Below are positions 7,553-63,800 of a DNA stretch of 64,000 nt, piece after piece. The DNA is taken from NCBI GenBank assembly GCA_000004985.1, contig GG738877.1, one strand, 5' to 3'. Under the pieces are notes generated by a model. That model worked only from the letters and a program-made list of their open reading frames with translations, was not told the origin of the DNA and ran no database searches. Positions within the stretch are counted from its first letter, which is position 1. Each line of letters opens with the position of its first letter. This DNA is from Naegleria gruberi (lineage: Eukaryota). A program made the position numbers and the translations under genes.

Positions 7553-9019
7553 TTAATAATTATTATTAAATACAAAACATCCAGTGTAGGCATGTCTGAT
7601 AGGTTCAGTTTTCCTCAATAATGTACGAATGGTATTGGATCTGGTGTTACCAGTTACCAAAGTTACATTTCTAAAGTATTGTTCGAAAATTTCCTTAAAT
7701 TCACCAATTGCCCAATCGATTAATCTATTTTCATCCAATAGGGTGAGGATTTTCATTCCATCTCTTGAACCATCCATTAAAAAGTCTCTAATTATTTCTG
7801 ACTCAGTGGCACTACTCGTATTTGGATGATGTAATTTGCAGTAAATCTTCCAATGCTTTAAGGTGTAGAGAATGAATTGGATGAGTACTCTACTCTTCTT
7901 TTGGTTTTCCTTCTTGTTTCTGGTTCTGAATTCTTTTCTCACACCAACGAACAGATACATCATATCTTGTAACAATCCAATAAAATCATTTCTTTTTTCT
8001 CCAATGCCATTGCTTTTAGAATTATTTCCATGAGCAAAGTTTCTTTCAAATAGATAGTTCAATCTTGTATGCTCATCAAACTTATCCAAAATAGCCATGA
8101 TCTTTGTAATCTCCCCATCAAAACAGGAGAGTAAGTCAATTTTCAAAGGATGATATCTTCCATGTTTTTCACGTCTACAATACTTGTGAATCTTGAGAAT
8201 ACTTTCTGTGATACGAAAATGGGTATCCTTTTCTAATTGCTTTTCAAATATCAACTTCCAGTCTCTGTGCTTATTGACAGACTTGGAGAACCTCTTACTG
8301 TCAAAGAGAATCTTATTCAATTTAGTATTGATATTGTTTTCAAATTGTTCTTCATCGTTTCCTAAGAACACAACTGGGCTATTGATGGATTTCAAAGTGT
8401 AGAGTGTTCTGTATAATCTGTTGAGACTCTTGTTTTGCTCGATATAGGTTTTCATTAGGGACATGTCAGTAAATTCTGTCTTTGGTGTCAACCAGTATGG
8501 AAACAATTTGTTAAGGTCAGAGATTGCACAATTCAAACGATAAAACACCTTTGATGAACTAAATTCACCAATCTTGGTTTGGACTCGTTTTTTGAAATCA
8601 TACTCAAATCTGTTGGTACATTTACCAACCAACAAATCCTTCTTTTTATCTTCTGAATAAGAATCCCATAAACCTTTAAGTCTATTTCCCAGTTTATCAA
8701 AATCACCTGTACGCTTGATGAATTTTCCTCTTTTCTGAACATATTTAATTCGTCTTTCAATATTGTTTCTGATTGAAAGGTATGCCATGGTTGTATAAAA
8801 TTGACTGCTATTCACAATATCCCTCTTATTTTCCAAATCATCAATACTAGATATTCCCAACATGTTCAAACTAATATTCTTACAAATTGTTAAAAATCCT
8901 TTAATACACAAATCATCGACCGATAAATGACACAAAATATCATGCATCACATCGGGAGAAAGCATAGCAAAAGTGCTTCCACCACAAGTGGCAGCAGGGA
9001 CAAGCTCATGTTGACTCAT
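7553..9019 (-). CDS. Hypothetical protein, lineage-specific family A (N-terminal F-box-like motif); tandem paralog of 9087..10514
   Basis: Intronless 488-aa ORF. The N-terminus has DVMHDILCHLSVDDLCIKGFL, which is F-box-like. Shared blocks with its neighbour include LNKLFPYWLT, ILFDSKRFxKSxNKxRxWKLxFxKQLEK, FLFERNxAxG and DFLxDGxRxxM. Confidence 0.7.
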   Translation of the reverse strand: MSQHELVPAATCGGSTFAMLSPDVMHDILCHLSVDDLCIKGFLTICKNISLNMLGISSIDDLENKRDIVNSSQFYTTMAYLSIRNNIERRIKYVQKRGKFIKRTGDFDKLGNRLKGLWDSYSEDKKKDLLVGKCTNRFEYDFKKRVQTKIGEFSSSKVFYRLNCAISDLNKLFPYWLTPKTEFTDMSLMKTYIEQNKSLNRLYRTLYTLKSINSPVVFLGNDEEQFENNINTKLNKILFDSKRFSKSVNKHRDWKLIFEKQLEKDTHFRITESILKIHKYCRREKHGRYHPLKIDLLSCFDGEITKIMAILDKFDEHTRLNYLFERNFAHGNNSKSNGIGEKRNDFIGLLQDMMYLFVGVRKEFRTRNKKENQKKSRVLIQFILYTLKHWKIYCKLHHPNTSSATESEIIRDFLMDGSRDGMKILTLLDENRLIDWAIGEFKEIFEQYFRNVTLVTGNTRSNTIRTLLRKTEPIRHAYTGCFVFNNNY

Positions 9020-9086
9020 TTTTTTTAAAGTTTTTTGTAAACAAGTTCACGGAATGAATACCGAAGAGTTGATATTATGTGTATTT

Positions 9087-10514
9087 TCATTTTCGAATTT
9101 GAGATCTATATCTGTATCTGGGATAGTACTTGATTTTTTTTCTTGCCAAATGCCAACTTCTTTCATTGCCATCAGATGTGGGAAAACAATCCTCAAAGAC
9201 AGTTGGGAATTGTTTGTAAATGTAGGAAAATCCGAGGTTGCTGATGAGTAGGGAAATATTTCTCATTCGAGGTCTTGGACCATCCAATAGGAAATCATTT
9301 AAAATTTCTCTTTCAGAAAAATCAAAATTATTGAGTTTGAAAAATAGTTTCCAATTCTCATAGACAAGCTCTGTAAACTCGACCAGTAAGTTTTGATAAT
9401 CTATTACATCATGGGACGGTTTGTGTCTATCAGGGTGAAGATTGGAAGTAAAATAGAGGACGTGTTGGTGCAGACTCACAAATTGATTGTTGAAATTAAC
9501 TTCTTTTTTCATAGAAGGACCAAGTTCTCCACATGCATAATTTCTCTCAAATAGAAAGAATATTCTTGTTCTCTCATTCATTCCTTTCAAAAGTTCAATA
9601 ATTCTTTTCAGGGGTGATTGGTACATGCGTTCATGAATGGTAATTCTTGACCTATTTGAGATGAGTTTGTTGAATTCTTTTACTAGAGAAACAAACTCGT
9701 GGTGTTTGGTCTTTTCCAACTGTTTCTGGAATACCAACTTCCAATTTCTTTCCTTATTTGAGGATTTCTTAAATCGTTTAGAGTCGAACAGAATCGAATT
9801 GAACTTCTCATCCAAATAAATTTCATAGTATTCTGTTTCTGTATGAGAGATATTACAACTCTTGATATCAAGTAATGCCCTATAAATATTACTAAGGTTA
9901 ATACTTGACTTGATATGTGAAACCATGAGTGCTGTATCAGAAAATTCGCTGTGTGAGGTCAACCAATATGGAAACAATTTGTTGAGCTCTCTAATTGCCC
10001 CAACAAATCTATAAAATAATTTAGAAGTCTTGTAATATGATTCTCCAATAGCAAGTTTTGTAAAATCCATATCCATCATTTCATAATCCAATTCACTCGC
10101 CCTCACTTCTTGAAATTTAATTTCCAATTTTTTCCTAGCCAACTCGGATAATCTCTCCAACACATTCCGAATAGAAAGAAATGTCATAGTTCTATAATAT
10201 TCACTCTGATCAATCAATTCCCTCTTCAATTCAAAATAAGCAAAATCTGATATTCCCAACATGGTCATACAAACTCCTCTTCCAATCTCCAAGAAGGAAC
10301 ACACAACACAATCATCAATCGTCAAGAAGCACAAAATTTGATGGAAAATCTCGGAGGGAAGTTTAGAAAATTGATCATGAATTGGCTTTTCAAATTTGTT
10401 TTTTTTGAATAAATTGAAAGATGAGGAGTGAGATGATTCTTTAGAGATGCAATTGTTTGGTGTATTATTATTTGTGATGAAAGTGATATCTTTTCTCTTC
10501 TTTGAGTTGAGCAT
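9087..10514 (-). CDS. Hypothetical protein, family A paralog 2 (F-box-like N-terminus)
   Basis: Intronless 475-aa ORF. It has LPSEIFHQILCFLTIDDCVVCSFL and the same conserved blocks as 7553..9019, at about 30-35% identity. It is in tandem and on the same strand. Confidence 0.7.
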   Translation of the reverse strand: MLNSKKRKDITFITNNNTPNNCISKESSHSSSFNLFKKNKFEKPIHDQFSKLPSEIFHQILCFLTIDDCVVCSFLEIGRGVCMTMLGISDFAYFELKRELIDQSEYYRTMTFLSIRNVLERLSELARKKLEIKFQEVRASELDYEMMDMDFTKLAIGESYYKTSKLFYRFVGAIRELNKLFPYWLTSHSEFSDTALMVSHIKSSINLSNIYRALLDIKSCNISHTETEYYEIYLDEKFNSILFDSKRFKKSSNKERNWKLVFQKQLEKTKHHEFVSLVKEFNKLISNRSRITIHERMYQSPLKRIIELLKGMNERTRIFFLFERNYACGELGPSMKKEVNFNNQFVSLHQHVLYFTSNLHPDRHKPSHDVIDYQNLLVEFTELVYENWKLFFKLNNFDFSEREILNDFLLDGPRPRMRNISLLISNLGFSYIYKQFPTVFEDCFPTSDGNERSWHLARKKIKYYPRYRYRSQIRK

Positions 10515-10579
10515 TTTTTTCTTTCGAATAATCCTGTGAAAGTTTTATTTAGCAGTATCAATTCTATTCGCTGTGTCTC

Positions 10580-13236
10580 CTAATTGATTTCAGGAATGCT
10601 ATGGTATGATTTCTTCCTCCTGTATCTTAAAATTCCAATGACCAACAAGACAACACAAATAACTAACAGGATGCACAACACAACTCCACCACTCACAGCT
10701 CCAACAATTGCAGCGTAAGGTGTTCCACATTGAGCTCCTGAAAAACCATTTTCACAAGCACAAGTATTGTTGAGAACACAAATTCCATGATTACTGCAAT
10801 TTGCAAATAAGCCATCACATGAAAATATAGAACAATTTAAAGAACCATTCCAACCTGGGTCACATGTGCATGAGTTATTGGAGGAACACATTCCGTGACC
10901 ACTGCAATTATGGAGGCCATCACATGAAATGGCAGAACAAGTGCTGGTTCCTCTCCAACCTGATTCACAAGAACAAGTACTATTCGAAATGCAAGTGCCA
11001 TGACCAGAGCAGTTTCTTTCACAAGAAAAGGTGCCACACATTGAATCTCCTTGCCATCCACTGTCACATTCACAAACACCTCGAATACAATCACCATGAA
11101 AATGACAAGTTTCCCTTAATCTGTCAATACAAGTTCCAGGATTTCCATTTGACAAAATTCTCAATCTTGATGAATCTGAGTAAATAAGATTACCATTGGA
11201 TGTAATTGCCACTCCTGAGAGTTCACCCATCATCTCATCATTTCCAATGAGTGTTACAATTGTTTCATTACTAAATATTTTCCTTACAACCTTATTAAAC
11301 GAATCTGCAATATAAACTTCACCAAATTTGTTGACTGCTATTGCCTTTGGATTATTAAGTCGTGCATAAATTGCTGGTCCATAATCTCCAGTATATCCAA
11401 CTTTTCCATTTCCTATTGAAATCTTTAGAAATTTTGAAGAAATTTAAAACGTACCTGCAATTAAAACAAAACCCTCACTAGAAGAGTACTTGAAAATTTG
11501 ATTTTCAAGAGTGCAAGCAATGTACAAATCGCAAGATGGTCCATAAATCAATTGTTGTGGCAAAAATTGTACTTTAAATGTTAAAAACGGTCAATAAAAA
11601 GGAAAACAAACCTTGATTTGGTGCTTGGATAATTGTTTGAATTGTAAAGTCATTGTAAACTCTTCTAACTCTATTATTCCATGTATCTGCAATATCAAAT
11701 AGAAACTCGCCTTCCATGCATTTAGGCGGTAGAGCTAAACCCATAGGTCTATTCAACAAACAATGAGAAGCTGGTCCACCATCTCCACCAAACCCTTGCT
11801 TAATAATTGTTTCTACCTAAATGTTTACAATAATTAATACTTACAATTCCTGTACCTACTAGGGTGGTGATAATTCCATTTCTGTCAACCATTCTAATTC
11901 TATTATTATTGGTGTCAGCAATGATAATCTCTCCTCCTTTCAACACAATTACAGAACTGGGATTTGATAACAAACTTTGATTAGCTGGGATGTGGTCATG
12001 AGTGTACCCTAGCTGCTTGAAAACTCCAGCAACAATATTCATCAATCCAGAAGTAAGATTAACCTTCAATACTACTGAAGAAAATGCTGGAAAGTATACT
12101 TCATAATCATTAGAGAACCATATGGCACCAACCTCTTCCAAATAATAACTTGTTGCTTCCATTTTTGGTTGTAATTGGTAAGGAAGATGACCAGCAATAA
12201 CCTGATCTTGTGTAACTGAGCTGGTTCCATGAACAGATAATAGTGCAATTTCTGTGTAGGGTTTTCTACAGTCAGTAAGATAATACACTTGACAATTCTC
12301 ATTGCAAATCAGAGAAAAGAAACTCACTCCATTCTTGCTTGAATGTAATCTCTTAACAGGATAAGGTTCAGTATACATTAACAAATAACTGTCATCGTTG
12401 GCAATTAACATGTTATTTTCAATATATTCCACTTGAGTTGGTCTCATATTAACTGGTGCACCATTAATTGACAGTTTCTTTACATAACCATTCATATCTA
12501 TTTGTAATATTCTTCTATTTCCAGTATCTGCCACTGTCATTAACCCATTAGGAGAAAAAGTGACACCTCTTGGATCATTTAGCTTACAATCTGTTGGAAT
12601 ATTTCCTAAACAATGGTCAATATTAACAACCTTATTATTTCCCATTACAATTGAGCAAATTGCAACATCTCTTACTTGTGTCAATTCTAATTTCCAAATG
12701 AAATTGGCATATGCATCAGCAATATAATAATCTGCATTAAACTTTGTCATTTGGACTCCCAAACCATACGTTTCATCTTTGGTTTTATATGTCAAAGTCA
12801 ACTTTGAAATATAACCAGATGTCAAGTCCAAAACTCTGATGCAAAACTCATCCAAGATGTAAAGACAATTGGTTGATGCATTAAAATAGAGTCCTTGTGG
12901 TCTAATCAATCTAGTTTCAATAGCTAATGAGTCATCTGGACTGTCAACATCTCGTCCACATATTCCAGTGCCAGCAATCACTTCACTGTAATTGCCTTGA
13001 ATTCTTCTGACAGTACACAAACTCACATCAGACACGAAAATAATAGGTTCAGCATTGGCATGTGTTTTCACCACATGTATTCCTCCATAACCAGCTTTCA
13101 AGGGAAAATCAAAGGAATGGAAAGAGTTTCCAATACTTCCACCAACTGTTGCAATGGTTTCATGACATTCAATATTAACACGCAGAATGAAAAGGATTAA
13201 CAAAAAGTAGCAAACTAATACTTGTGAAAGATACAT
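10580..13236 (-). CDS. Type I membrane protein with signal peptide, NHL-repeat region, 5-6 EGF-like repeats, TM helix and short tail; 4 exons: 13236..11860, 11816..11612, 11571..11455, 11412..10580
   Basis: The N-terminus MYLSQVLVCYFLLILFILRVNIECHE is a signal peptide. NHL-type repeats follow, for example IAGTGICGRD, NNRIRMVDRNGIITTL, GFGGDGGPASHCLLNRPMGLA and GYTGDYGPAIYARLNNPKAIAV. EGF-like repeats follow the pattern CxxxGxCxxGxCxCxxGWxGxxC, for example CHFHGDCIRGVCECDSGWQGDSMC. A TM helix VVLCILLVICVVLLVIGIL follows, then the tail RYRRKKSYHSIPEIN. Introns are 43 nt (the alternative reading is 28 nt), 40 nt (GTTTGT..AAAG) and 42 nt (GTACGT..ATAG). Confidence 0.75.
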
Positions 13237-13527: not shown

Positions 13528-14889
13528 ATGGTTTCTGATAGTGAAGACGAATCATACAATGACGATTTTTTCTTTGATGATTCATTCATGAATGAAGAAG
13601 CAGAAGAAGAAACAATAATTAATAATAGCGAAGAAACAATCATTAACAGCGAAGAATTAATTTCCCTATTGTTCTACACTAAACATAATTTACCTACTTC
13701 TCGTAGTGGTTCCTTGCTGTTGGGATCAGAGAATGTCATGACACATTCGACAATATTATTCACGTATGGAGGTTAGTTTCGAATATTATTTTTCTCCAAA
13801 AAGAGAAATTAATTGGAAATTCTAGGAGAGCATATTCCAAGTAGAATTGAAAATGAGAATATTTACATTTTGAAATTATCAAATCTGATCAATCAATTAT
13901 CTATTTCATCATTAAATTATGAAACTAATCGAGTGGAATTAATTTGGGAGGAAATAATTCCAAATAGTGAAAAAAAACCAATTGGAAGAAAACATCCATG
14001 TCTTTCCTATGATAAATCTAATCAATTAGTTTACTTATTTGGTGGATATGAGAATGGAAATTATTTGAATGACTTGTGGGTATTTGAATTGAAAAGTAAA
14101 AAATGGTCAATGATTGAAACATTTGGAGAAATTCCAGTGGGAAGATGTGGAGGTGTTGCCAAGTTTTATTCGAATGGAATGTTTTATGTGTTTGGAGGGT
14201 ATAATCATAAGGAAAGAACGAACGCCCTTTTTGAACTGGATCTCAAGACAAGAGAATGGAAACAAGTGAATTATTCAGAAACAATTCCAATCATGACACC
14301 AATTAGTGAACTTTCGTATATTTCAGATAACGTACTCACAGTATTGAAAGTGGATATTTTACAAGCAAATATGTTTAAATTTAGTTTCAATACTAGACAG
14401 TGGATTATCAAAAGATATAGACAATTTCCTACTTCAGATACAATATGCTTGTGCTGGAGAGAATCTCAAAAATCCAGCAACGTTGGAGAAAGTGTCTTTG
14501 CACTATTTCAGGAATCTGGAATTTTTGATAGCAAAAAGGATAAATTTGTGCAAGGTACTGTACAAGTTATAGTTGAGTTTGATGGAGAGAAGGATAAACT
14601 CATTCTTCATAAGCTCCCGAAACGACTTGTTGAGAAACCATTTGAGGGGACATTTATGTTTGAACTCAATATGTTGTGTTGGGTCTGGATGGATCATTAT
14701 ATTACAGTACAACCAGTGAGAAGACCATTAAGAAGGTTGACAAACAAGGTGCAATTTCGATCATTGTTTGTGCTTGGTCCTGACGAATTGTGCTTGTTAA
14801 GAGTGAGAGGTAAATCGAAAACTGAATATTTCTTTAATAATTTGAAAGGAAGTACGAAATTTTCAGATTTACTAATCAAAGTTCAATAA
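13528..14889 (+). CDS. Kelch-repeat protein with acidic N-terminus, 2 exons: 13528..13771 and 13826..14889
   Basis: Kelch-type GG/W motifs: VYLFGGYENGNYLNDLWVFELKSKKWS and MFYVFGGYNHKERTNALFELDLKTREWKQV. One 54-nt intron (GTTAGT..CTAG) joins ...FTYGG|GEHIPS in phase 1. Confidence 0.75.
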
Positions 14890-40869: not shown

Positions 40870-43020
40870 ATGAAAAATAGTCTCAATACTCAAAATCATC
40901 AAATAATTGATGAAGAGGGCTCTGCTTCCCAATATCAACTCGTCGAAGGAGATCAATCATCCATGGAAATAATTGAAGGGAATGCACAATCAGGCTTCAG
41001 AGGCAAATTTCAAGCTCAAAAGGCAAAATTCATCAAATTTAAGAATAACCTCTATGTTAAACGAGTAACAGCTGTGGTATTGTTCTGGTTCAAGTTATTA
41101 TCTGGACCAGTAATGGCATTGCCATTCTTTTGTGGTGCATTATCTGGCTGGGGATCCACAGTCGATATTGACAGATGTGCTGGAATAACCGCTTGGTTGG
41201 CTTGCTATTGGATTCTTCAACCTGTTCATGTAACAGTAAGTAATCTTCATCATCAATTGTTTAATAATGAACATAATTAGGTAACAAGTTTTATGCCTCT
41301 GATTTTGTTTCCATTATTGGGAACTACAAGTGGAAAGAATATGGCCAGTGCTTACTATAATGACACTTCAATTCTTTGCATTGGTTCGTTTATTGTGGCA
41401 GCAGCAATTGAAAAGTGGAATATTCACAAGAGATTTGCCTTGTTTGTGTTGAGTTTTATTGGATTGAGACCTAGAATACTCTTATTTGCCTTCACATGTT
41501 TGGTTGGATTCATTACCATGTGGATTTCGAATAGTGCAACCACTGCAATGTTTATTCCAATGGCCAATGCTGTTATTACCAGTATTAGAGTTAGAAATGA
41601 AGAGAATCCAAATAAGCAAGAAAGAGAAAGGGAGGAAATCAAGATTAAAAAATTTGCCAAAGCACTTTTCATGATCATTCCATTTGCTAGTTCAATAATG
41701 GGTAGTTCAACCTTAATTGGCACTACAACAAATTTAGTTATTGGACAAGTATTGAATTCTCAATTCAAGAAGCTTGCCACTTCCACTAATAATCCAGTAA
41801 CTTTTCTTAATTGGTTCATTTATGCTTTCCCACCAATGATTGTACTATTAATTATAACATTCCTTTACTTCTTGATTGTATTGGTAAGAACTATTAATCT
41901 CAAAGAGGAAGAACCTATTTTAACAGAAATTGAATTGGGTCAAAATAATTTGAAGGAGAATTTACTTGAAGAATCTGAATACTATGTCGAAAATATCAAC
42001 GAAGACCAAGAACCAATTGAGAACAATGATAAGCTCTTGTCTGTGGCCACAAGCGAGAGTGATTCAAACACTTCCAAAAAGAAGAAGAAAGACAAAAAGA
42101 AGAAACTTCCAAATGTCTTCAAGAAGGAATATAAGAAATTAGGAAAAATCAAGTTTGAAGAAATAGTTATTTCCCTCCTTTTCTTGGTAATGTGCTTGTT
42201 GTGGTTGTTGAGAGATCTCTCATTTGGAACAACTCGAATTTCTTGGTCATACTTGGTGTTTTTCATGAGTGGTAAACCAGTCAAGAAACAAGATACAGTA
42301 ATGGCCTATCCAACGGATGGAACTGTAGCTATAGTTATTGGAATTTTACTATTCTTCATTCCATCTTTCAATAGAGCTGAGGCACCAATTGTTGAACAAG
42401 AAAGTGACAAATCTCTCACTCGCATGCAACGCTTTAAAGCACAGCTTTTTAAATGGAGAAACACAACTGGAAGAATTATGGAATGGAAAGAAGTTCAAGA
42501 AAAGCTTCAGTGGGATATCTTAATCCTATTGGGTGGCGGTTTTGCATTGGCTCAAGCTTTTAGTGATTGTGGATTCTCAGAATTCGTTGTCAATGTTATG
42601 GTCGTTAAACTTGATTTGGCCAATAAGGTAGCTCCATACACATTAATGTTCGTTATTGTTTTTGGTATTAGTTTGTTAACAGAGTTGACTACCAACACAA
42701 GTATTGCTGTTCTTTCAATGCCTGTTTTGGCTGTTCTTGGTCCAAAACTGGGTCAGAATCCAGTTTTCTTCATGGCATCTGCAACATTGGCTTGTTCGAT
42801 GGCTTTCATGACTCCAATTGGTACCGGACCAAATTTGTTAGCATTTTCTGCTAAACATTATTCTATTTTTGATGGTTTATTACATGGTGGTGTGATAAAT
42901 ATCATTGGTGTTGCAGCAATCATGTTGGGTTCTATGGCCATGTTTCCAACCATTGGAGTTGTCCCTAATGTTATACCAGATTGGGGAAAAACAAATTCAA
43001 CTACCCATTCGATATTTTAG
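40870..43020 (+). CDS. SLC13/DASS-family Na+-coupled anion (sulfate/di-tricarboxylate) symporter, 2 exons: 40870..41235 and 41281..43020
   Basis: Conserved SLC13 N-terminal segment: CAGITAWLACYWILQPVHVT..SFMPLILFPLLG (compare YWCTEVIPLAVTSLMPVLLFPLF). Both hairpin SNxxTxxMxxP motifs are present: WISNSATTAMFIPMANA and TELTTNTSIAVLSMPVLA. There are 11-13 TM segments and a charged central loop (KKKKKDKKKK). The intron is 45 nt (GTAAGT..ATTAG). An alternative GTAACA donor 6 nt upstream would avoid a VT duplication. Confidence 0.8.
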
Positions 43021-43340
43021 TGAACTATAAAAAAGAAGAATTTAAATATTATAAAACTGTAAACCCTATTCAAAAGTCGGAGAATTGTCATTGTAATTGT
43101 TGATTCAAACTAGCACGATAAATATTAAGAATCAGTGAACCCTGTATCACTCTAAATGAAAGTCCTCGGAGTGTATCAAACAAACAATATCCAAATCTCA
43201 TGCATTCATAGAAGTAACAATTGATAATACAATTATTATAATTCCAAGATTGGCTCTATAAAAATCCCGCCATGTCACCTTCAAAACAACTTTAGATTCG
43301 CATACATGCAGAGATTACTTATCAACTTTGAGAAAAAAAG

Positions 43341-44417
43341 ATGGCAACCACTCTTTCCATTGATCTTCTTGCTTCTAATATCTTTGCTTACGCAGTTGAC
43401 CTTGATGATGCTAGTGTTGGAAAGGACATTCTAAACTATAGTTTAGTTTGTTCACATTGGGCTCAATGTTTTATCAATGTGAAGAGAATTGTATCTAATC
43501 AAGATGTTGCTGAAGACATGCAATACGAACAAGAAGCATTCTGGAAATTGTTATTCTCAACTTTACATTCCAGAACAGAATTTGAAAAACATGAAACATT
43601 CAATTATAGAGAATTGTACATGTTGAATACCATCCCAACCTTAGATTTTGAAAATCATGAACAAACTTTTATTGATGGACCATCAGGAAATCATCAATTG
43701 TTCTACAGTGGATCTTTGAATAGTTGCAATCTTCTCTCTAATTCGTTGAAGAATTTGCAAATTCACAAATTGGTGATGAGAAGAGTATTGAGAAGTTCTT
43801 ACGAAACTTTCATCAAGGATGGTAAAATTCTTGAAACAATGGTTGAATTCTTTGCCAATAGAGTGGTCAACCGTGAAGTTCCAAATCAAGAGTTGACTGA
43901 ATTTGATGTTCAATATGCTAAGGATGTTGAAGAAAGAATTACACAACCATTTAAAAAGTATCTCCTCTCCAAAGAATCTAACCCAAGAATTGGAGATTTC
44001 ATTGTTTCAAATGGTGAAAAATTCATTGAGAGATTCGAATATGCTGTCCATTATATGAAAACAGGACACAAGACTTGGGATGATTACTACTTCTTTAGAA
44101 TGAGAAAAGCTCTCTATCTTCTCATCCTTAGTGGAAAGGTTGATAATTTGAGTATTTTCGATAGTGCACTCATCATTCCAAGAGATTTTGATGGAATGGA
44201 AAGAGAAATGGAAGAGATTCCACCTCAACAATATGGAATTCCATTCCCAACCAATATGGAAGAGTTTAAAACATTCCTTGATGAAAATTGTTCCATAATT
44301 TTGGAAAATCCATTTTGTTCTGGTTATCATGGAAGCGTTGATTGTATTAACTTTTTAATCTTTTCTAAAGTTAAAAAGGGTTGTGGTTTTTACATTAACA
44401 TTGAAAGTACATCTTAA
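43341..44417 (+). CDS. Hypothetical protein with F-box-like N-terminus
   Basis: 358-aa intronless ORF. The N-terminus reads LSIDLLASNIFAYAVDLDDASVGKDILNYSLVCSHWAQCF, which matches the F-box pattern LxxDLLxxIFxYL..D..xLNxSLVCxxW. Confidence 0.55.
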   Translation: MATTLSIDLLASNIFAYAVDLDDASVGKDILNYSLVCSHWAQCFINVKRIVSNQDVAEDMQYEQEAFWKLLFSTLHSRTEFEKHETFNYRELYMLNTIPTLDFENHEQTFIDGPSGNHQLFYSGSLNSCNLLSNSLKNLQIHKLVMRRVLRSSYETFIKDGKILETMVEFFANRVVNREVPNQELTEFDVQYAKDVEERITQPFKKYLLSKESNPRIGDFIVSNGEKFIERFEYAVHYMKTGHKTWDDYYFFRMRKALYLLILSGKVDNLSIFDSALIIPRDFDGMEREMEEIPPQQYGIPFPTNMEEFKTFLDENCSIILENPFCSGYHGSVDCINFLIFSKVKKGCGFYINIESTS

Positions 44418-45613
44418 TTTTTAGTGAATTAAAGTGAATTTGATTTAAGTCCAACAGCAATCTTTTAACCTTGCAAAAAGCAAAAAGACAACAGCTACAT
44501 GATCGGGATTGAACTTACAGATGATAAAAGCTTAGTATGATGAAGTGTGTATGAAAATTCCAGTGATTGTATTTGAATGGAAGAAAGTGGAAGAGGACGA
44601 AAACTACCATAATTTCGAGAAGAAGCCATCTTTCAATTTTGCCATTATTACTATTCCGCCCAGTTACTAAAATTGAAATATTCCAAAATGATGATGAGCT
44701 AATTGAAATACTAACAGTGATGAGTTGAGGTATTTGTTATTAAACAACGCTACTAGGAGGACTTACAAATATTTTTGGAAATTTCTTTTCCTTAATAGAA
44801 ATCCAAAAACTAACTAGTTAGTTTTAATTTACATTCCAATGAAATAATGTAGTGTTGAGTATTAAATATGAACCGTTTGTACCGAGTGAAAATTTCAGCG
44901 GTCAATTCTCAACGATCTATTGTAAAGAGTAGAAATTACGTAATCAATGACATCACATTTTCTCTTCTTTCATCATCAATCTTACTTCATCCAATTCAAC
45001 GAACATTGAACCATCCACACAAAGCAACAAATCCAATTCGAAAGTTGTGTGACATTTAGGGCCAACATATTTTATGATTCCACAAGTTCAAACGAATTCC
45101 CTTCGAGAGAATTTATTGTATTCTCAGCATGATTTTGAAGATCTTCCGTGATAATACAAAGTTTCTAAAATATTCATCTTCTCACCAATAAACACAATTG
45201 TTATTTTAGTGAAATCGCAAAGCTCATTGAGGAAGGGTAAATAACGTAATTTATTGGTTGTTTTTAAAATGCAATTTAAAAATAGCATCAAGTGTTGCTT
45301 GCAATGTCGTTCGCATATGTTCTTCTCGCTCAAATCTATCTTGAAAAAAAAGACCAAAACTTCATACCCCCCAAAAGCTTCCCTGCCTTTTTGCAAGCGG
45401 GAACAAGGAACTAAATTGAACCTGAACAAACTGCAAATTCACAAATTAACTAGAAAAACCTTTTGGATTAAAATACGAGAATTGTTTGAACATCAAACTC
45501 ACTCTTGATTGTTACTTTTTGAACAATGCTAAATACTTCATAGTTATTCTCTTCTTTTCCAATCTCTCTCACAACTTTGTAAACACTCCGAACGATAACT
45601 CTCTCCAATAGAA

Positions 45614-47032
45614 ATGAATCCACAAAACAATAACTTATTTGATAATAATCCATCCACACCATCCACTCCAACCTCCTCCTCGAGGAAAGCCAATGGTAAC
45701 AGATACCGTCCAACTAATCTCATAATTCCAAGTGTAATAGATGAAAACCATGTTGTAACGGTGACTTGTTTAACAAACAATAGCTCTGTCACTAGTCACG
45801 GTAATGCCTCAATGACTCCTTGTGAAAGTTGTCATTCGAGTTGCCTTTCTAGTGTTTCCTCTCCTTCTCAAACTCCTTTTGTACAAACATCCACGCTTCT
45901 CAATCAACATGAGAAGGAATTCTACAACTCTATGGGTTTTGAACTGGTAAAATCTTCGGTAGCCAAAGGAATTACAAGTACCGTTAATTTGGTGAGAAGA
46001 ATTGCTCCATTTTCAAATTGCACTGAAGAAGAAGTTGTTGAACAAGAATGTGGTGGAGAAGCTGCTGTTTCCTCAATTCCAACCTCCTCGTCTGGTTCCT
46101 ACTCTAAACCAGATCAATATCCAATCTCTAATTCATCCCTCTCCCCTGATAACGAAGACTCCCAGGAATCTCTCTACGAAGAATCAACTCTCTTCGCTGA
46201 AAAGGTTATTAGTCTCAATTCTGAACATACCAATCACTCACTGACAGACATTGAGCGTGAAGAACGTTGCTTATTAAAGTGTACTTCTTCACCTTACATT
46301 GTCAACTTGTACAAATCAACTCGATCAAGCAAGTACCATCACCGTTTCTTCTTGGAATACATTGATGGGTGTACAATTGCAGATTTAATAGAATCAAGAA
46401 GAGATGCCATTTGTGAGAAGGAACTTGCCTTGATTGCTCAACAATTATTACGAGCTTTAGTATTCCTTAAAGAGAAAGGATTACTTCACAGAGATATTAA
46501 AAGCGAGAATATTATGCTCTGTAAGAATGGTTGTGTCAAGTTGATAGACTTGGGACTTGCCATCGAATTGGACCAAGTCAATAATAACCGAGTTACTTCA
46601 CCTCATTCCAGTTCTACCTCTACAGAACCAGAGTCAGTTATCACAAAAGGTACCTACTCATTCATGTGCCCTAACAAATTACTAACTGGCAAGGAAAGTT
46701 TTGAAAGCGATTTATATAGTATGGGAATGACTCTTTTGGAACTCTTCCTTGGTCATTTACCTTTCGAATTTGATCAACAAGCAAACACTGATAGTTCATT
46801 CCCATTGGCAGACATTGTATCATTCGATATCGAGGAATATTGCATGCCTCTTGTTGAATCTGGAAGAATGAGCAATGAATTGAAACATTTTTTGACTTTG
46901 TGCATGAACAGGGATTGTGAAATGAGACCACACGTCCATTCATTACTTTCTCACCCATTCCTTTCTCATACCTTTGAAATGAGTCATTCTGAATTGTGTA
47001 TTTGCTTGAAAAGGCTTTTTACAGAGCGATGA
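45614..47032 (+). CDS. Ser/Thr protein kinase (divergent; Ser/Thr-rich N-terminal half)
   Basis: 472-aa ORF. The catalytic loop is LLHRDIKSENIML. It also has DLGLA (a DFG variant), APE-like MCPNKLLTGKESFESDLYSMGMTLLELFLG, and a conserved LSHPFL at the end of the kinase domain. The N-terminal 220 aa are S/T/P-rich. No canonical Gly-rich loop was recognised. Confidence 0.7.
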   Translation: MNPQNNNLFDNNPSTPSTPTSSSRKANGNRYRPTNLIIPSVIDENHVVTVTCLTNNSSVTSHGNASMTPCESCHSSCLSSVSSPSQTPFVQTSTLLNQHEKEFYNSMGFELVKSSVAKGITSTVNLVRRIAPFSNCTEEEVVEQECGGEAAVSSIPTSSSGSYSKPDQYPISNSSLSPDNEDSQESLYEESTLFAEKVISLNSEHTNHSLTDIEREERCLLKCTSSPYIVNLYKSTRSSKYHHRFFLEYIDGCTIADLIESRRDAICEKELALIAQQLLRALVFLKEKGLLHRDIKSENIMLCKNGCVKLIDLGLAIELDQVNNNRVTSPHSSSTSTEPESVITKGTYSFMCPNKLLTGKESFESDLYSMGMTLLELFLGHLPFEFDQQANTDSSFPLADIVSFDIEEYCMPLVESGRMSNELKHFLTLCMNRDCEMRPHVHSLLSHPFLSHTFEMSHSELCICLKRLFTER

Positions 47033-47082
47033 AATAAAACTCAAAACAATTCTCAACAAAGCTGAGCGGTATTCTAAATTAT

Positions 47083-48126
47083 TTATCTGTAGAGTTGCAC
47101 TCTATTGTTGTAAGTGTCAGCCACTAGTAACGTCTCACTAGCATCATCAAAATAGACTCCATAGGGTTTTCTGAATTGAGAATTAGTTACTCCAAAAGTT
47201 CCAAAACTGTTTACAAACTCCTCCCTCTTACAATCGAAAAGTTGTACTCTGTGATTCGATTCATCTGCCACAAATATCAAACCTTTCTTTTTTGATAATG
47301 AAATTCCTCTTGGCAATTTTAAATTACAAAATGAAGAGCCTCCCTTACCAAATGATTTCTGGGAATATTCAAGATTATTTGATGTGATAGATTTTTTAAA
47401 TTTCACAATTCTAAGACAATGACCATTCATATCGCTCACATATAGAGATTTTGTAGAATCATCAAAATCTATAGCAAATGGTTTTCTGAATGGATTATTG
47501 TTTTCTAATTGTATATTTCCTATTCTGTTCACTTCTGTTCCATCTTTAGAATTCAACATTATTACTGACTCAGAGGAAGTGTCACAAACTAAAATTATAT
47601 TCGAATTATTTCTATATGAAACACACAACCCAGTTGGATATCCTACACTAATATATTTCCAATATGTATGGCCAGATTTAGTACCCTTACGTATCTTTAG
47701 TTTCAATACTTGATTCATAGAAGTTCCAACAATCAAGGCATCCCTTTCCTCTCCTTTTTCTACACACAACGACAATGGTTGACCACTTAGCAACTGGATA
47801 GTCTCCTCCAAAATCCTTGTCAATAAATTAAATCCCAATATTCTTCCATTGTAATAATCACCAACAAGTATCAATTGTGAAGAATGAGAAACTGTAACAC
47901 ACCAAGGACAAGATATCAATCCATCTCCAATCGTACCAACATATCGGAATCCAATTGCAGAAAGTGATCTCATCCTCGAACAGAGTAACTGAAATAATTC
48001 CCTATCATCAAATAAATGTTGATTACATTGTTTTAATGATGACGATGAATTAATAACTTTTTGATTTGGAATATTTGAATAATTTTCCTTCTGTTGCACA
48101 AAATCCACCAGAATAATTCTTGTCAT
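47083..48126 (-). CDS. NHL-repeat beta-propeller protein
   Basis: 347-aa intronless ORF. NHL-like repeats include YVSDMNGHCLRIVKF, IFVADESNHRVQLFDCKREEFVNSFGTFGVTNSQFRKPYGVYF and LLVADTYNNRVQLY. Confidence 0.7.
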   Translation of the reverse strand: MTRIILVDFVQQKENYSNIPNQKVINSSSSLKQCNQHLFDDRELFQLLCSRMRSLSAIGFRYVGTIGDGLISCPWCVTVSHSSQLILVGDYYNGRILGFNLLTRILEETIQLLSGQPLSLCVEKGEERDALIVGTSMNQVLKLKIRKGTKSGHTYWKYISVGYPTGLCVSYRNNSNIILVCDTSSESVIMLNSKDGTEVNRIGNIQLENNNPFRKPFAIDFDDSTKSLYVSDMNGHCLRIVKFKKSITSNNLEYSQKSFGKGGSSFCNLKLPRGISLSKKKGLIFVADESNHRVQLFDCKREEFVNSFGTFGVTNSQFRKPYGVYFDDASETLLVADTYNNRVQLYR

Positions 48127-57627: not shown

Positions 57628-57843
57628 AAGAATTGACTGTTAATGGCTCGTGAATTGTAAACATCACTAATGGCACTATGTAGGTACTCATTCCGTTTCT
57701 GTGGAAGGTTACACAACGATGGCAATTTTGTCTGCGATGTATGACGTTTAGTGACAAAGTGGAACGAGTCTATGTGCAAGAATTTCGCTGCATGTAGTTA
57801 GTAAGGCAATGACATTCACAAGACTAAATACACAGAAGAAAAA

Positions 57844-60800
57844 ATGTCTCGCAATAATGTCCACAATGGATCCACTGGTTGGACTCGTCGAGTAACCAAT
57901 CATCCAATGGACCACTCTTCCTCTTCTTCATCGTATAGTAATGGATCACCTGATCAACAACAGCAACAACAAGGAACACTTCCTCCTCCCCTACCACCAA
58001 GACGAGCAACCACAATTTCAACAAGACAGCAAGGGATTGAAATATCGAACGGAAATTCATCAACAAATAATACTTTAGTTTCTCAATTTGGTAATAGAAG
58101 TGATTTTTCTAGTAACATTCTTACAAGAAACAAATACGAACCCCATTCATCAACCGAGAGTAACAACAATCAATCTGCCTTTAATAATGAGAGTTATCAA
58201 AGTTATGCAGGTGTTGATGATCTAAATAGTACTTCTTTCAATAGATTTGAAACAAATCATCCATCTAACCAAACAAATGCTCCACCTAGCATTCCACAAA
58301 GGAAACCCAAATACCATTCACCCTCTCTGCTCAACAAATCTCCTCCTCCACCAATACCTCAAAAATCTATTAACCACATCCAACATGATTCTCCTTCAAA
58401 CAGCTCACCAACCTCTCCAAAATTCCTCAATAGAAATCCTCCCCCACCAATTCCAGGATCCCTCAAAGGGATAGACACTGACATTCGTTTAAAGGATGAT
58501 GAACAAAAGGAGGAGGTATTACCCAAACGTCAAGATATTGTGTCCTCTTCCATCAACATCAACTTTTCGGGTGATAGCACTGATGAGAACCATACGAAAC
58601 CAAAGAAAAATCGACCACCATCCATTCCATCATACTCTAGAGGATTTAATTCTGGTGCTGCTAATAGTAATTATTCTTCTATTGATCAAAGTTTGACTGG
58701 TAATAGTGCTGTTACAACAACTCCACCACCTTTGCCAATCAGAAAGATTGTTAACGATAAGAAACTTCTCGACTCACCAAACAGTGTAAATAGTGTTGGA
58801 AGTAATAGTAGTAGTTGCAGCTCATCTCTCAGTGATTCGTGCAACATTCTCAGTTATTTACATTCCAAACAGGGAGGAAATTTGAATATGGATTACCTAG
58901 ATACAGGCGACGAAGGTTCTCTGATGCAAGATGTGGAGTCAGAAGGAAATGATGAGTTTAGTTTTCCAAGCAATTCATATGAGGCAGAAAACGATCTGTC
59001 ATCACCTGGAAATGGTCAATCAGCCAAACCAATCGATTTTTCAGTAGACGAGGCACTCTTCAGACGAGTCAACTCAAAAGTGAAAACACTCTCTTTAAAT
59101 GGCATTTCTCGTTCTTCTTCATTGACTAGAAAAACATCTAGAACCCTTCACTACTCTTCACAAAACAAATCACACAACACCTCCTTTGTTGAATATCAAC
59201 AACAACATAATCACTCACCAACTGCTGCTTACACCTCTTCCGATCAATTTGGAAGTAGTAGTAATTCAACCAGCACAACAATTTTACCATCCGAAAGAAT
59301 TGAACAAGCAATGGAAATTGAAACGAAAAACAAACCTTGGTCACAAACAGATAAGACCTTGTCAGCTGAGGAAGAAGAATTATTGGCAAATTCAAGAGTT
59401 TCTCAACCTCATCTTCTTCAAGCCTACAAAGTTTTTAACACACCATTCCATATTATGAAACGAGTACCTGTAAAATATATGCGAGCACCTTTCCAGCCTA
59501 CTTTTGATGAAAACGATGGAATTGACCATAGTCATAATTATTGTGATAATTCAGAATCTTCTGTTTCTTCAGCACCAAAACAATCTTCTTCCGACTCCAG
59601 TGATGATGAATCGTCAACTAATACTGAAGAAGAAAGTATTACCACACCAAGAAATAGAAAGAGTTACTTTTTGAAATTGTCAGAAATTGATAAAATTTCT
59701 CTTGGTCAAACAGAAGATTCAGACCATCACACTATTCAGCAATCTCCTAGAAATAGTGTAACACCTAGAGCATCAATAAGAAGTAAAACAATTATTGGTA
59801 TGATAGGAGGAAACACGGAAAAGAAGGCAGTTGACGGTTTTGATGAAATTCAAGTTTTGGAAGCAAAGAAAAGTCTTGTCGAATTTGCCAAATATTCTGC
59901 TGGTAAAAAGAAGACTGACATTATTGAAAATATTGAACCAAAGAATGGAACTGTAATGGTAGTTAAAAACCCAGGATTAGATGCTGTGACAGAGACCATT
60001 ACTTCAAAAACACGTTTGATGAGTTGTTTAAAACCTGATTACATGTTCAAACCTTTGGAAGCTTCAATGTGCCAAAGAGTTTCTGATTTAGCTTATCCAG
60101 TTAAAAGAAAGACCAAATTCTTCCTTCAATGTACAAGTTTAAGATTTGAAAATATTCAAATGAAAGATAGAGAATTATTATTCTCATCAGTTGCCTTATA
60201 CGATATTCAATATGGTAGAAAATTATCAGAAGACTACCATTTCCATTTATTGCCTAATCAACAATTAAGCGATCTTCCACCTCTATTCAGAGATGAACTC
60301 AAAATTTATGAAGATGCAAGAGATATTTATTCTTCAATAATAGTTTCTCCAAAAAAGTTATTCACTGTTAGTTATCCAAATGACGAGGTCTATCTCGTAG
60401 CAACAATCTATAGAATTCCTACATCATCTATCCATGAGGCTGTTAAAATGTATTCTAAAGAAAATAAGAATATTGATAAGTGGTCTGATCAATACAATCA
60501 ACTTAAGGCCAAGCTAATTAGATTCAGACAGCCATTTTTATTTGGATTTACATCTTTATTTGTTAAGGAAATGATCAATGTTAAAGGGAAACAGGTTGAA
60601 TCTTTCAAATTGGAAGGTTCAAGATATGACATCAAACCATTCTATGAAGTTGATGGCGATTTTAAAAATCCAGTAGATTTTGTGACAATTATTAGAAACT
60701 CAATCAAGGATAAGAAAATTAAGAATAATCAAGTTCAAGGATCTATGCTGTTCACTGCTGAACTTCTTTCAAATTCTAGTTCTCAAAGTAATTATGAAAT

Positions 60801-63800
60801 TCAGCAAAAAATCCAAAATTCTAAATCAAGATTCTTAACAAGTCAAGGATCGAGATCTGATTTGGATTCCTCATTTGGGTCCCCAAGCTCAAGCTCTATT
60901 CTCGGATCAAGTACAGCATTCAGCTCACCAAGATCTGTTAATGAAAGTATAATATCTAGTTATGAGCATGATGGAACTGAGAGCCTTGTAAATCAAGAAC
61001 AACTCAATCAAGTTCAAGAATTTCCACTCCTCTCCTCTAACTATCCTAATCTATCCATGCAAAATACTTTGTTTATTTATCCTCAAAGTTTTATTATTGA
61101 AGGTGCATCCTCAGCAAAGAACATTTTTGCTGAAGTTTATTTTAGAGAAACAGACACAGCTCCTCCTAAAGTTGAAGATATTGATGGAAAAGCTGAAAAA
61201 AGATTTATTGCTTGGTTAAAGAAGGAGAGAACAACTTCTTTAATAACTTCCCTTTCGGTCGATTCGAGACAGCAAATATTATTGGATGAATTTAGATTGG
61301 AACTTCCAATGTATCCTATGGAAAAGCACCATTTATTATTTGTCTTTTACCATGTTGATATTGACAATAAGCATTCAAAGAAATTGGAATATGCAAATAG
61401 TTCCTTCGATTCAAGAAAAGAATTCTTTTCAACATCTGATAGAGCTATTATTGGATATGCTTTCCTCCCACTCACTAAGAGTATTCAACCAGATGAATGT
61501 GAGTACACTTTGAAACACAACCTTATCTACTTGCCTGATTGTAATGATGATATTACAATCTACAAGAAGGACTCTTTTAAGAGTAATTATTTGTCTGAGA
61601 ATAGTCTCAAACCTCTAAAGAGTTCAAAAATCAAAGTTAAAACCAATTTAGTATCGACTATACACCCTAGAGATCCAACTCTTGCATTATTTTATGCTTC
61701 TCTGACTGATCTCTACACAGCCGCTCCTGGTAAAACAATTGAAATATTGGATTTCTTGGAAGGTTTTGTTCTTCAAAAGTTTAACGAAATTGAATTCTCA
61801 GAGTTGTTACCTCACTTCCCAATTTTAATGAACCTACTTTTTGAATTGATGTGCAGAGTTTCTGAACTTACAACTGATGAACAACAAATTGAAAGCTTGG
61901 AAAGCTCTGTCTTTGAATCATTACTTGTTTGCCTAAGAGGATCCTACCACTTTACCAAACATCACACAAGAAGTAACAAGTATTTTACTAGTTATGTTAA
62001 ATTCATGTTTGAAAACATCAAGGGTAATCCACTTTTCTTGAATTTACCAAGAATAATAACAAGATTTATTTATGTTCCAGAAGGCAAGGAACTTGAGCCA
62101 GCAGAAGAAGGCAAATATATTAAGGAAATGAACAGGCTCAGTAAAAAGTATGGCAAGTCAGTCATAAAGAAAACTACCAGTTTGGAAAAGGATAAAAAGG
62201 AATACGAAAAGAAAAAGAATGAAGTATCTCCTCATGATCCTATCAGATTTTCTTGGTTCCTTTTCGATATTACTATCAAGAGTATAATTCTTTCAGGAGT
62301 GCCTAGCTCAGAAGATCACCACACTATGGATTACTTTACAGAAGTACCTGAAGACCTATTCTTCATATCATTGAAACAATTAATTGACAACTTTAATACA
62401 TGTGTCAACAAGTTAATGTTGAGTGATGGTACTGGAAGAAATAACATTGGGTTGAATGGTAATAGAAACTTGGCATTGTTCATTAGAGATTTGATCCCTA
62501 TTCTCAAAAGAGAACATGTGCTCAAACTGGTAAAGAAATACTTTAAATTCTTTAATGGATCGGATGAGAAACAACTTCGTTTGAAGAGTGAATTCATTAC
62601 TATCCTCAGTGACTATGAGCATTGGATTCCTATCAACAATTTATCATTGGAAGGAGGAAACTTTGGTGTCAAACATTTCAGCACGTTATTCTATCAAATT
62701 GTGGACAGTAAGAAGGATAGATTAATTAAGAAGATGACAAAGGTCTTACTCAACCACCTTTGTAAACTTGATTTTGACTCTAGATATGTTCATGAAAACT
62801 CAAAAGCCAATGTTTGTGAAATTTATCTCATCTTTGTTGATTTGTTCTTTGAAAAAGATGAGTACCTCACAATTTTCCAAGATGATGAGCTGTTTGTTGT
62901 ATTTTCATGCATTTTGTTGTGGATAATGAGAGGCTTATCAAAGCAAAGGTTAATTTCTTGGTTCAAGGTTCTACCATTCTTCAAGATTTTGAATATTTTG
63001 AACTTTTTGGACTATGTAACTATTGCTATTAACAATCTCGATTATGATCCAAAATCTAGAGTTGAAGATGATAGATCTCTTCGTACCGAAGTTTCCCTTG
63101 TTATTAATTACTTGATTTCTGTAATTGTATCAAATGTCACCTCAGACGGAGGATTTATTGATGAGCTGCAAATGCAAAGCGACAATATTGATCTTCTCTC
63201 TAATATCCAACTTGCTGATCCAAGTTTACTGAGACAAAGACAACTTGTATCCTACTATGAGGCAAAAAGCTTAAAGCAACAAGCTCCTCTTATTGGTCTA
63301 TTCTTTAGACAGATTTGTAGAGTTTTGATGAACAGTGTTCTTCAATTAACCTTGAGAAAGGAATTAGACTTGGTATATATTGTATTTAGAGAATCACTTT
63401 TACCTCTTATCAAAGAATGTACCAGTAAACTTGTGGTAAATGAGCTCTATGATCCAAACATTCCAAAGAAACAGAGAATTCCTATTGCTGAAAAGAGACA
63501 AGTCGAACAAAAGTGGAGATGGTTATTGGGTGCTGTTATGCTTCACTCAGGATTTACATCTGAAGAAGAGCAAAATGCTTATCCAATTGTCAAAGAATGT
63601 CAAAAACTTTTATTAGAACCTTTCAATAATGAACTGTTCAATGTGCAATTAGATAGTACCGATATTGAGGATGGTGATTTGCTATTGAACAATGAAGAGC
63701 ACAATATCAAAGCAGGTACATTCAAAAAACTTGTCGAAAGATTGCTTGACGTGGATACAAATCAAATTGACAAGGAGAGTCACAAGTATGGAGAAATCTT

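Follow-up and report, generated by a model that had tools for sequence, protein, structure and literature searches.

Weak F-box-like similarity in a genus-restricted tandem gene pair and two single genes of Naegleria gruberi

F-box proteins of the FBXO class, which combine an F-box with a domain other than WD40 or leucine-rich repeats, serve as substrate receptors of SCF (Skp1-Cul1-Rbx1) ligases. Much larger sets of F-box proteins are found in the F-box/FBA2-DUF38 families of C. elegans and in the FBA/FBK families of plants, which comprise tens to hundreds of copies and display documented positive selection. F-box proteins with lineage-specific C termini are commonplace in eukaryotes, as are their tandem duplicates. 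In Trypanosoma brucei, two lineage-restricted cyclin F-box proteins, CFB1 and CFB2, are encoded by adjacent genes (PMC8051951). CFB2 binds both VSG mRNA and Skp1, and the MKT1-binding motif of the CFB1/CFB2 family is a C-terminal HNPY/HDPY (PMC8051951). Here, we analyzed a 64,000-nucleotide stretch of Naegleria gruberi contig GG738877.1 (assembly GCA_000004985.1), referred to below as the window, in which six genes had been proposed to carry N-terminal F-box-like motifs and to indicate a lineage-specific, rapidly diversifying expansion of a kind often linked to conflict (the original prediction). Four of the six, the tandem pair at 7553..10514 and two single genes, were found to have N termini with a real, if weak, similarity to F-boxes. 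The window is nuclear chromosomal DNA of this free-living amoeboflagellate, with a GC content of about 33%.

All six proposed open reading frames (ORFs) exist, with one correction: the most upstream gene of the second pair begins at ATG 24410 rather than at GTG 24422. They comprise two tandem pairs, family A (7553..9019 and 9087..10514) and family B (22063..23178 and 23262..24410), and two singletons, gene C (26205..27083) and gene D (43341..44417). As had been predicted, the members of each pair are uninterrupted and lie on the same (minus) strand, with 33% identity in family A and 32% in family B, and the quoted motifs LNKLFPYWLT, LFERN, ICHHVM, FAKFFL and IYGFxxCxF are all present. All-against-all BLASTP detected no similarity among A, B, C and D, nor any additional paralogs of these genes within the window. 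Thus, the proposed cluster of six consists of two tandem pairs and two singletons from four unrelated families, and the notion of a single expansion did not hold. Three of the six ORFs correspond to single-exon annotated proteins of N. gruberi: NAEGRDRAFT_80251 (7553..9019), NAEGRDRAFT_50191 (22063..23178) and NAEGRDRAFT_69253 (43341..44417).

The upstream copy of family A (9087..10514, minus strand) encodes 475 amino acids (aa). Its N terminus is basic and of low complexity, an F-box-like motif comes next, and the C-terminal region beyond it, about 380 aa long, is all-helical. The motif occupies residues 49-89 (10248..10370, minus strand; FSKLPSEIFHQILCFLTIDDCVVCSFLEIGRGVCMTMLGIS) and was picked up by Pfam (below its cut-off), by hhalign and by rank in a hidden Markov model (HMM) search. 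The downstream copy (7553..9019, minus strand) encodes 488 aa and matches NAEGRDRAFT_80251, which is located on a scaffold of 394.7 kb, with 100% identity. Its motif, at residues 17-57 (8849..8971, minus strand; FAMLSPDVMHDILCHLSVDDLCIKGFLTICKNISLNMLGIS), is degenerate; it was recognized by hhalign and lines up in every column with that of the family A paralogs. The two copies are separated by 67 bp and are 33% identical over 448 residues (E = 3e-68). Blocks conserved in the family include LNxxFPxWL, KxRNWK, LFERNYAxG, HWK and DFLxDG. The motif itself is better conserved than the remainder of the protein, with a mean pairwise identity of 0.44 versus 0.29. An exact look-up of the 475-aa product in public protein sets was negative, and when the product was searched against a collection of 5.8 billion proteins, the sole match was its paralog, with no match to itself. 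The gene at 9087..10514 is probably an unannotated N. gruberi gene.

The N termini of A, C and D are statistically similar to F-boxes. In hhalign, a profile of family A matched a profile built from 15 F-box seeds with 95% probability (E = 2.4e-8) over 25 columns, which correspond to helices 1 and 2, and the respective probabilities for C and D were 77-80% and 27-35%. None of the column-shuffled profiles (200 per query) reached the score of A (37.8 versus a maximum of 16.4), C (26.4 versus 18.8) or D (20.2 versus 17.5). A natural control consisted of 190 segments of 62 residues taken from a further 26 long ORFs in the window. The highest score among these segments was 16.7, whereas the single-sequence scores were 27.7 and 23.0 for the 475-aa and 488-aa copies of family A (the latter with 61% probability), 26.3 for C and 20.2 for D; 0/190 segments scored as high as A, C or D. 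An HMM built from the same seeds was also run against every ORF of the window that spans at least 60 aa from stop to stop (n = 221), and it ranked 26205..27083 first, 43341..44417 second and 9087..10514 third. Significant similarity to bona fide F-boxes in the helix 1-2 core, LPxE(I/L)xxx(I/L)xx(F/Y)Lxxx(D/E), was confined to A, C and D.

PDB sequences gave a similar picture for family A. When its N-terminal profile was searched against 177,635 distinct PDB sequences, F-box proteins accounted for five of the six best matches, namely cyclin F, FBXL17 (two entries), KDM2B and FBXL5 (E = 0.03-1.5). Each of these five was aligned at the position of its own F-box. The N termini of C and D, used as single sequences, had no matches in PDB.

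The Pfam profiles F-box (PF00646) and F-box-like (PF12937) were applied with their curated gathering cut-offs as the threshold. Gene C (26205..27083, minus strand; 292 aa) was the only one of the six genes to reach it, scoring 20.7 bits against the F-box cut-off of 20.5 (E = 3.7e-4). Its F-box lies at residues 61-93 (26805..26903), and the roughly 200 aa beyond it contain no known domain; the exact 292-aa product has no public record, and a scan of JGI metagenome contigs found no relatives of gene C. Gene D (43341..44417, plus strand; 358 aa), which is NAEGRDRAFT_69253, scored 13.5 bits with the F-box-like profile versus a cut-off of 24.3 (E = 0.065). Its weak F-box-like motif covers residues 10-45 (43368..43475). 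At the site of the helix-3 signature of F-boxes, V(S/C)(K/R)xW, gene D has LVCSHW, gene C has LVNKFT and family B has LISRTF.

Family B differed from the other genes in this respect. Its upstream copy (23262..24410, minus strand) encodes 382 aa and its downstream copy (22063..23178, minus strand), NAEGRDRAFT_50191, encodes 371 aa; the two are 83 bp apart and 32% identical (E = 4e-58). Both carry a conserved N-terminal block, at residues 5-48 (24267..24398) of the former and at 23038..23166 in the latter. The first 48 residues are 66% identical between the two copies versus 34% elsewhere, and as the best-conserved part of the family this block is therefore some functional module. The upstream copy is on record solely as a 282-aa model, equal to 73% of the 382-aa ORF, and this public model appears to omit the conserved block. 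By eye, the block (ICHHVM...LISxTF...FAKFFL) resembles an F-box. Pfam found no F-box in either gene, and the N-terminal profile retrieved from PDB a single noise match and no F-box. The hhalign probability against the F-box profile was 6.7%, with 1 of 200 shuffles scoring as high. The scores of the individual copies, 13.1 and 14.2, fall inside the background tail (4/190 natural segments were as high), and neither copy was among the top 40 of the 221 ORFs ranked by the seed HMM. The N-terminal block of family B is no demonstrable F-box and is indistinguishable from chance. Thus, the proposal of six F-box-like genes was borne out by profile comparison with controls for the A pair, C and D and was not supported for the B pair.

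Relatives of family B were scarce. Searched twice, the 5.8-billion-protein collection yielded nothing besides the two window genes, and no relatives were found in JGI metagenome contigs or in viral contigs. The first of these searches, with a single sequence, missed even the neighboring paralog, which is 32% identical, so the absence of relatives elsewhere is weak evidence. Family B appears to be an independent tandem pair of orphan genes, with N. gruberi as the sole species in which it was seen.

The spacers between successive minus-strand genes are short. At 9020..9086, 10515..10579 and 23179..23261 they measure only 65-83 bp, which leaves scant space for a terminator and a promoter, and a run of A precedes each ATG (AAAAAAAATG).

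We next describe the extent of family A. An exhaustive HMMER search with the family profile against 1.84 billion representative proteins returned four matches, all from Naegleria: the 488-aa gene of the window, NAEGRDRAFT_65299 (P0003; 610 aa), which is located on a different N. gruberi scaffold, and two types of N. lovaniensis protein (685 and 675 aa). N. gruberi has three copies of the family, and N. lovaniensis has two types, located at 10001..12058 (L002) and 9544..11571 (L003). The 675-aa type has a second copy with 98.8% identity on another contig (P0005 and P0006), which represents a haplotype of the assembly or else a recent duplication. The three N. gruberi copies share pairwise identities of 34-35%, compared with 25-32% between species, and in a neighbor-joining tree the copies clustered by species. 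Family A is small, fast-evolving and confined to the genus Naegleria, in agreement with the predicted lineage specificity. No relatives of family A were found in viral contigs, and we found no usable census of Naegleria F-box proteins in the literature.

The N. lovaniensis genes are single-copy, uninterrupted ORFs, and their loci contain neither neighbors in common with the window nor relatives of B, C or D. Thus, only the N. gruberi lineage has the tandem arrangement. In each of the family A relatives that lie outside the window, the C-terminal end carries RGG/RG repeats, as can be read directly in P0003-P0005, and a basic stretch precedes the F-box-like motif in NAEGRDRAFT_65299 and in one N. 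lovaniensis protein (P0004). Both window copies are devoid of the RGG tail. The tail and the basic stretch of these longer relatives suggest a nuclear setting or one in RNA-protein particles.

The C-terminal parts of the proteins matched no Pfam family and no known domain, as had been predicted. Full-length family A profiles yielded noise (E > 1) or no match among PDB sequences, and the exhaustive HMMER search found no relative of the C-terminal helical domain of family A outside Naegleria. AlphaFold2 (AF2) models of families A and B were each built from a two-sequence alignment. The family A model was all alpha, with a mean pLDDT (predicted local distance difference test) of 46, and in the family B model (mean pLDDT 44) the N-terminal half was helical and preceded a short beta segment. 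Foldseek comparison of both models with PDB gave no match below E = 0.6, and template-modeling (TM) scores were <0.25. Short helices were predicted in the family A motif at the places expected for an F-box (residues 54-62, 66-69 and 73-85), where pLDDT was about 40-50.

Selection was evaluated in two comparisons. Among paralogs, the NG86 method gave a synonymous divergence (dS) of about 2.2 and a non-synonymous divergence (dN) of 0.57-0.72, with a gene-wide dN/dS of 0.26-0.7; YN00 returned no estimate. With dS saturated, the paralog comparison therefore shows only that gene-wide dN/dS is below 1. The second comparison was between strains. A 5344-bp metagenome contig from ENA (ERZ929261, k127_90000) is 98.8% identical to window positions 42385..47728 and collinear with them, with the gene order SLC13 end, gene D, kinase, NHL and with an intact gene D ORF. 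The contig points to another N. gruberi-like strain, present in an environmental sample. Gene D differed between the strains at 3 non-synonymous and 1 synonymous sites, as opposed to 5 and 13 in the pooled neighbors; differences were few, and the contrast was not significant (one-sided Fisher test, hand-calculated p of about 0.12). All 33 of the 33 indel positions lay outside the four compared ORFs (SLC13, gene D, kinase and NHL). The pattern agrees with a genuine coding gene whose constraint is somewhat relaxed.

We favor the view that the A pair, C and D encode divergent FBXO-type proteins acting as Skp1 adaptors, to which we assign a probability of about 0.6. In such proteins, the N-terminal helical motif LPxEIxxxIxxFLxxxD...ISK would dock onto Skp1, and docking would bring A, C and D into a Cul1-Rbx1 (SCF) ubiquitin ligase, the components of which are, to our knowledge, universal in eukaryotes. 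The Naegleria-specific C-terminal region, all-helical and about 400 aa long in family A, would pick the substrate. The tandem pair of the window arose within the N. gruberi lineage through a local duplication, and it has lost the RGG tail. A more specific version of the adaptor model is unlikely: family A could represent an undescribed, Naegleria-restricted class of SCF adaptors with a half-degenerate F-box, a new substrate-binding fold of about 400 helical residues and, in members of ancestral type, an RGG tail. By functional analogy with CFB2, such a protein would link ubiquitylation with RNA-protein particles or the nucleolus, and the window pair would be RGG-less derivatives with new targets.

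Several results weigh against a role of these proteins as Skp1 adaptors. With Pfam, the 475-aa copy matched F-box and F-box-like at residues 49-74 below the cut-off (E = 0.043, 14.2 bits), the 488-aa copy matched no family at E ≤ 1, and 0/6 family A members reached the F-box cut-offs (best E = 0.0071). The confident alignment of family A is limited to helices 1 and 2. In helix 3, the family has ISKNI or ISRNI, in which the Trp is replaced, and this segment aligns to VSKxW only when a two-residue insertion is allowed. The 488-aa copy has LSP where an F-box has LP. The 15 seeds of the reference alignment were entered by hand and validated solely by PDB retrieval, in which 46/46 matches at E ≤ 1e-3 were named as F-box-type proteins. 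The AF2 models are poor and give no fold support for either the F-box or the C-terminal domains.

Some of these results speak for a different explanation, one that we regard as less likely, in which the motifs are relics, or F-box-shaped helices that do not bind Skp1, and the genes encode helical orphan proteins specific to Naegleria, with a role outside ubiquitin ligases. In family A this role could be nuclear or RNA-associated, for which the RGG tails (P0003-P0005) and the basic N termini would speak. That every family A member scores below the Pfam cut-off, that only half of the F-box aligns, with the helix-3 Trp gone, and that family B is devoid of any F-box signal speak for this explanation as well. 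What has been retained argues the other way: the conserved part, LPxEI...L...D, is the Skp1-contacting half in Skp1-Skp2 structures, the motif is among the more conserved blocks of family A, and its profile retrieves F-boxes specifically from PDB. It is far less probable still that, instead of being functional genes, certain of the ORFs are duplicates in decay or products of chance. The likeliest candidate would be 9087..10514, the product of which is absent from public protein sets, and the degenerate LP motif of the 488-aa copy could be taken as decay as well. Against this, the ORFs are intact over 292-488 codons in a 33% GC genome with frequent stop codons, their blocks are kept across species with dN/dS < 1, and no strain indel falls inside the four compared ORFs.

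The original prediction went further and saw in these genes a rapidly diversifying expansion of adaptors, often a sign of host-pathogen or self/non-self conflict. An expansion of this kind, driven by conflict and under positive selection, now appears improbable. Identity is indeed low within the genus, at 25-35% across family A, the clustering of copies by species is consistent with independent duplications, and family B has no detectable relative beyond N. gruberi. The 3:1 ratio of non-synonymous to synonymous differences in gene D, versus 5:13 in its neighbors, leans in the same direction (p of about 0.12). These signs of conflict are countered by copy numbers of 3 and 2 in N. gruberi for families A and B, far from tens to hundreds, by a dS that is saturated at about 2.2 with a gene-wide dN/dS of 0.26-0.7, and by the absence of A or B relatives from viral contigs. 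In addition, the six genes belong to four unrelated families, and their setting is one of housekeeping genes rather than a variable island. Diversification driven by conflict was thus not upheld, and the reading of A, C and D as divergent Skp1 adaptors remains the one that we favor.

The genes surrounding the two pairs and the two singletons are ordinary eukaryotic ones. They encode importin-beta, RCC1, a teneurin-like EGF/NHL receptor, Kelch, ABCG, MACPF, Snf7, COMMD, ATP23, SLC13, a protein kinase, PLAA, SLC12 and a DOCK-C2/RasGEF protein. Thus, the genes under study are interspersed with housekeeping genes and lie outside any specialized island. A giant-virus origin, which the AT-rich, densely packed ORFs of the window had suggested, was excluded by these neighbors together with the exact match to an N. 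gruberi protein.

Several of the neighboring genes have features of their own. Immediately upstream of the family A pair, two minus-strand ORFs, 10580..11233 and 11800..13236, look like two exons of a single receptor-like gene with an intron between them: one contains a signal peptide and NHL repeats, and the same-strand ORF downstream of it contains teneurin-like EGF repeats and a transmembrane helix. In N. lovaniensis, a gene in L002 (from 19688) encodes NHL and EGF_TEN together with a transmembrane segment and a kinase domain. The Kelch-repeat gene on the plus strand (13528..13776 and 13813..14889) apparently has a short acidic first exon and an intron. An F-box exon was searched for upstream of 13813 and was absent; therefore, this is not an F-box/Kelch protein. 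The plus-strand ORF 57805..63999 exceeds 2,065 codons and continues past the end of the window, with a DOCK-type C2 domain and a RasGEF N-terminal motif.

What is new here is modest: a genus-restricted family missed by Pfam, a copy that seems to lack annotation (9087..10514) and a gene model that is truncated. If the link to Skp1 is true, Naegleria would have a few ubiquitin-ligase adaptors of its own that routine domain annotation has overlooked. This would be useful for annotating Naegleria genomes, including that of the pathogen N. fowleri, and would provide a small example of F-box motifs decaying below detection thresholds. The locus is otherwise an ordinary small gene-family feature, with no bearing on a major open question.

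How these genes relate to the described F-box systems differs from one system to another. A, C and D share with the FBXO class an N-terminal helical motif of about 40 residues, LPxE(I/L)...(I/L)..(F/Y)L...D, followed by a longer, unrelated C-terminal domain. In family A, too, conservation is higher in the motif than in the remaining protein, and the best matches of the motif are F-boxes in PDB. Family A departs from this class in scoring under the Pfam cut-offs, in having a helix 3 without the conserved Trp, and in a C-terminal helical domain without relatives beyond Naegleria. The large lineage-specific expansions resemble the present families in their tandem duplicates, conserved F-box, diverged C-terminal region and restricted taxonomic range, whereas the families described here have 2-3 copies each and no evidence of positive selection.

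The closest analogy to family A is provided by CFB1 and CFB2. It is one without homology: the exhaustive profile search gave no kinetoplastid match, and on direct reading the C termini of family A contain no HNPY/HDPY motif. The link to RNA also differs in kind, since in family A it is inferred from RGG repeats alone, which the window copies lack, whereas CFB2 binds mRNA. With these differences, the two systems have in common their occurrence in a discobid protist, their restriction to one lineage, related copies that lie side by side, an F-box nearest to that of cyclin F, and a possible connection to RNA, through mRNA binding by CFB2 and through the RGG tails of the family A relatives.

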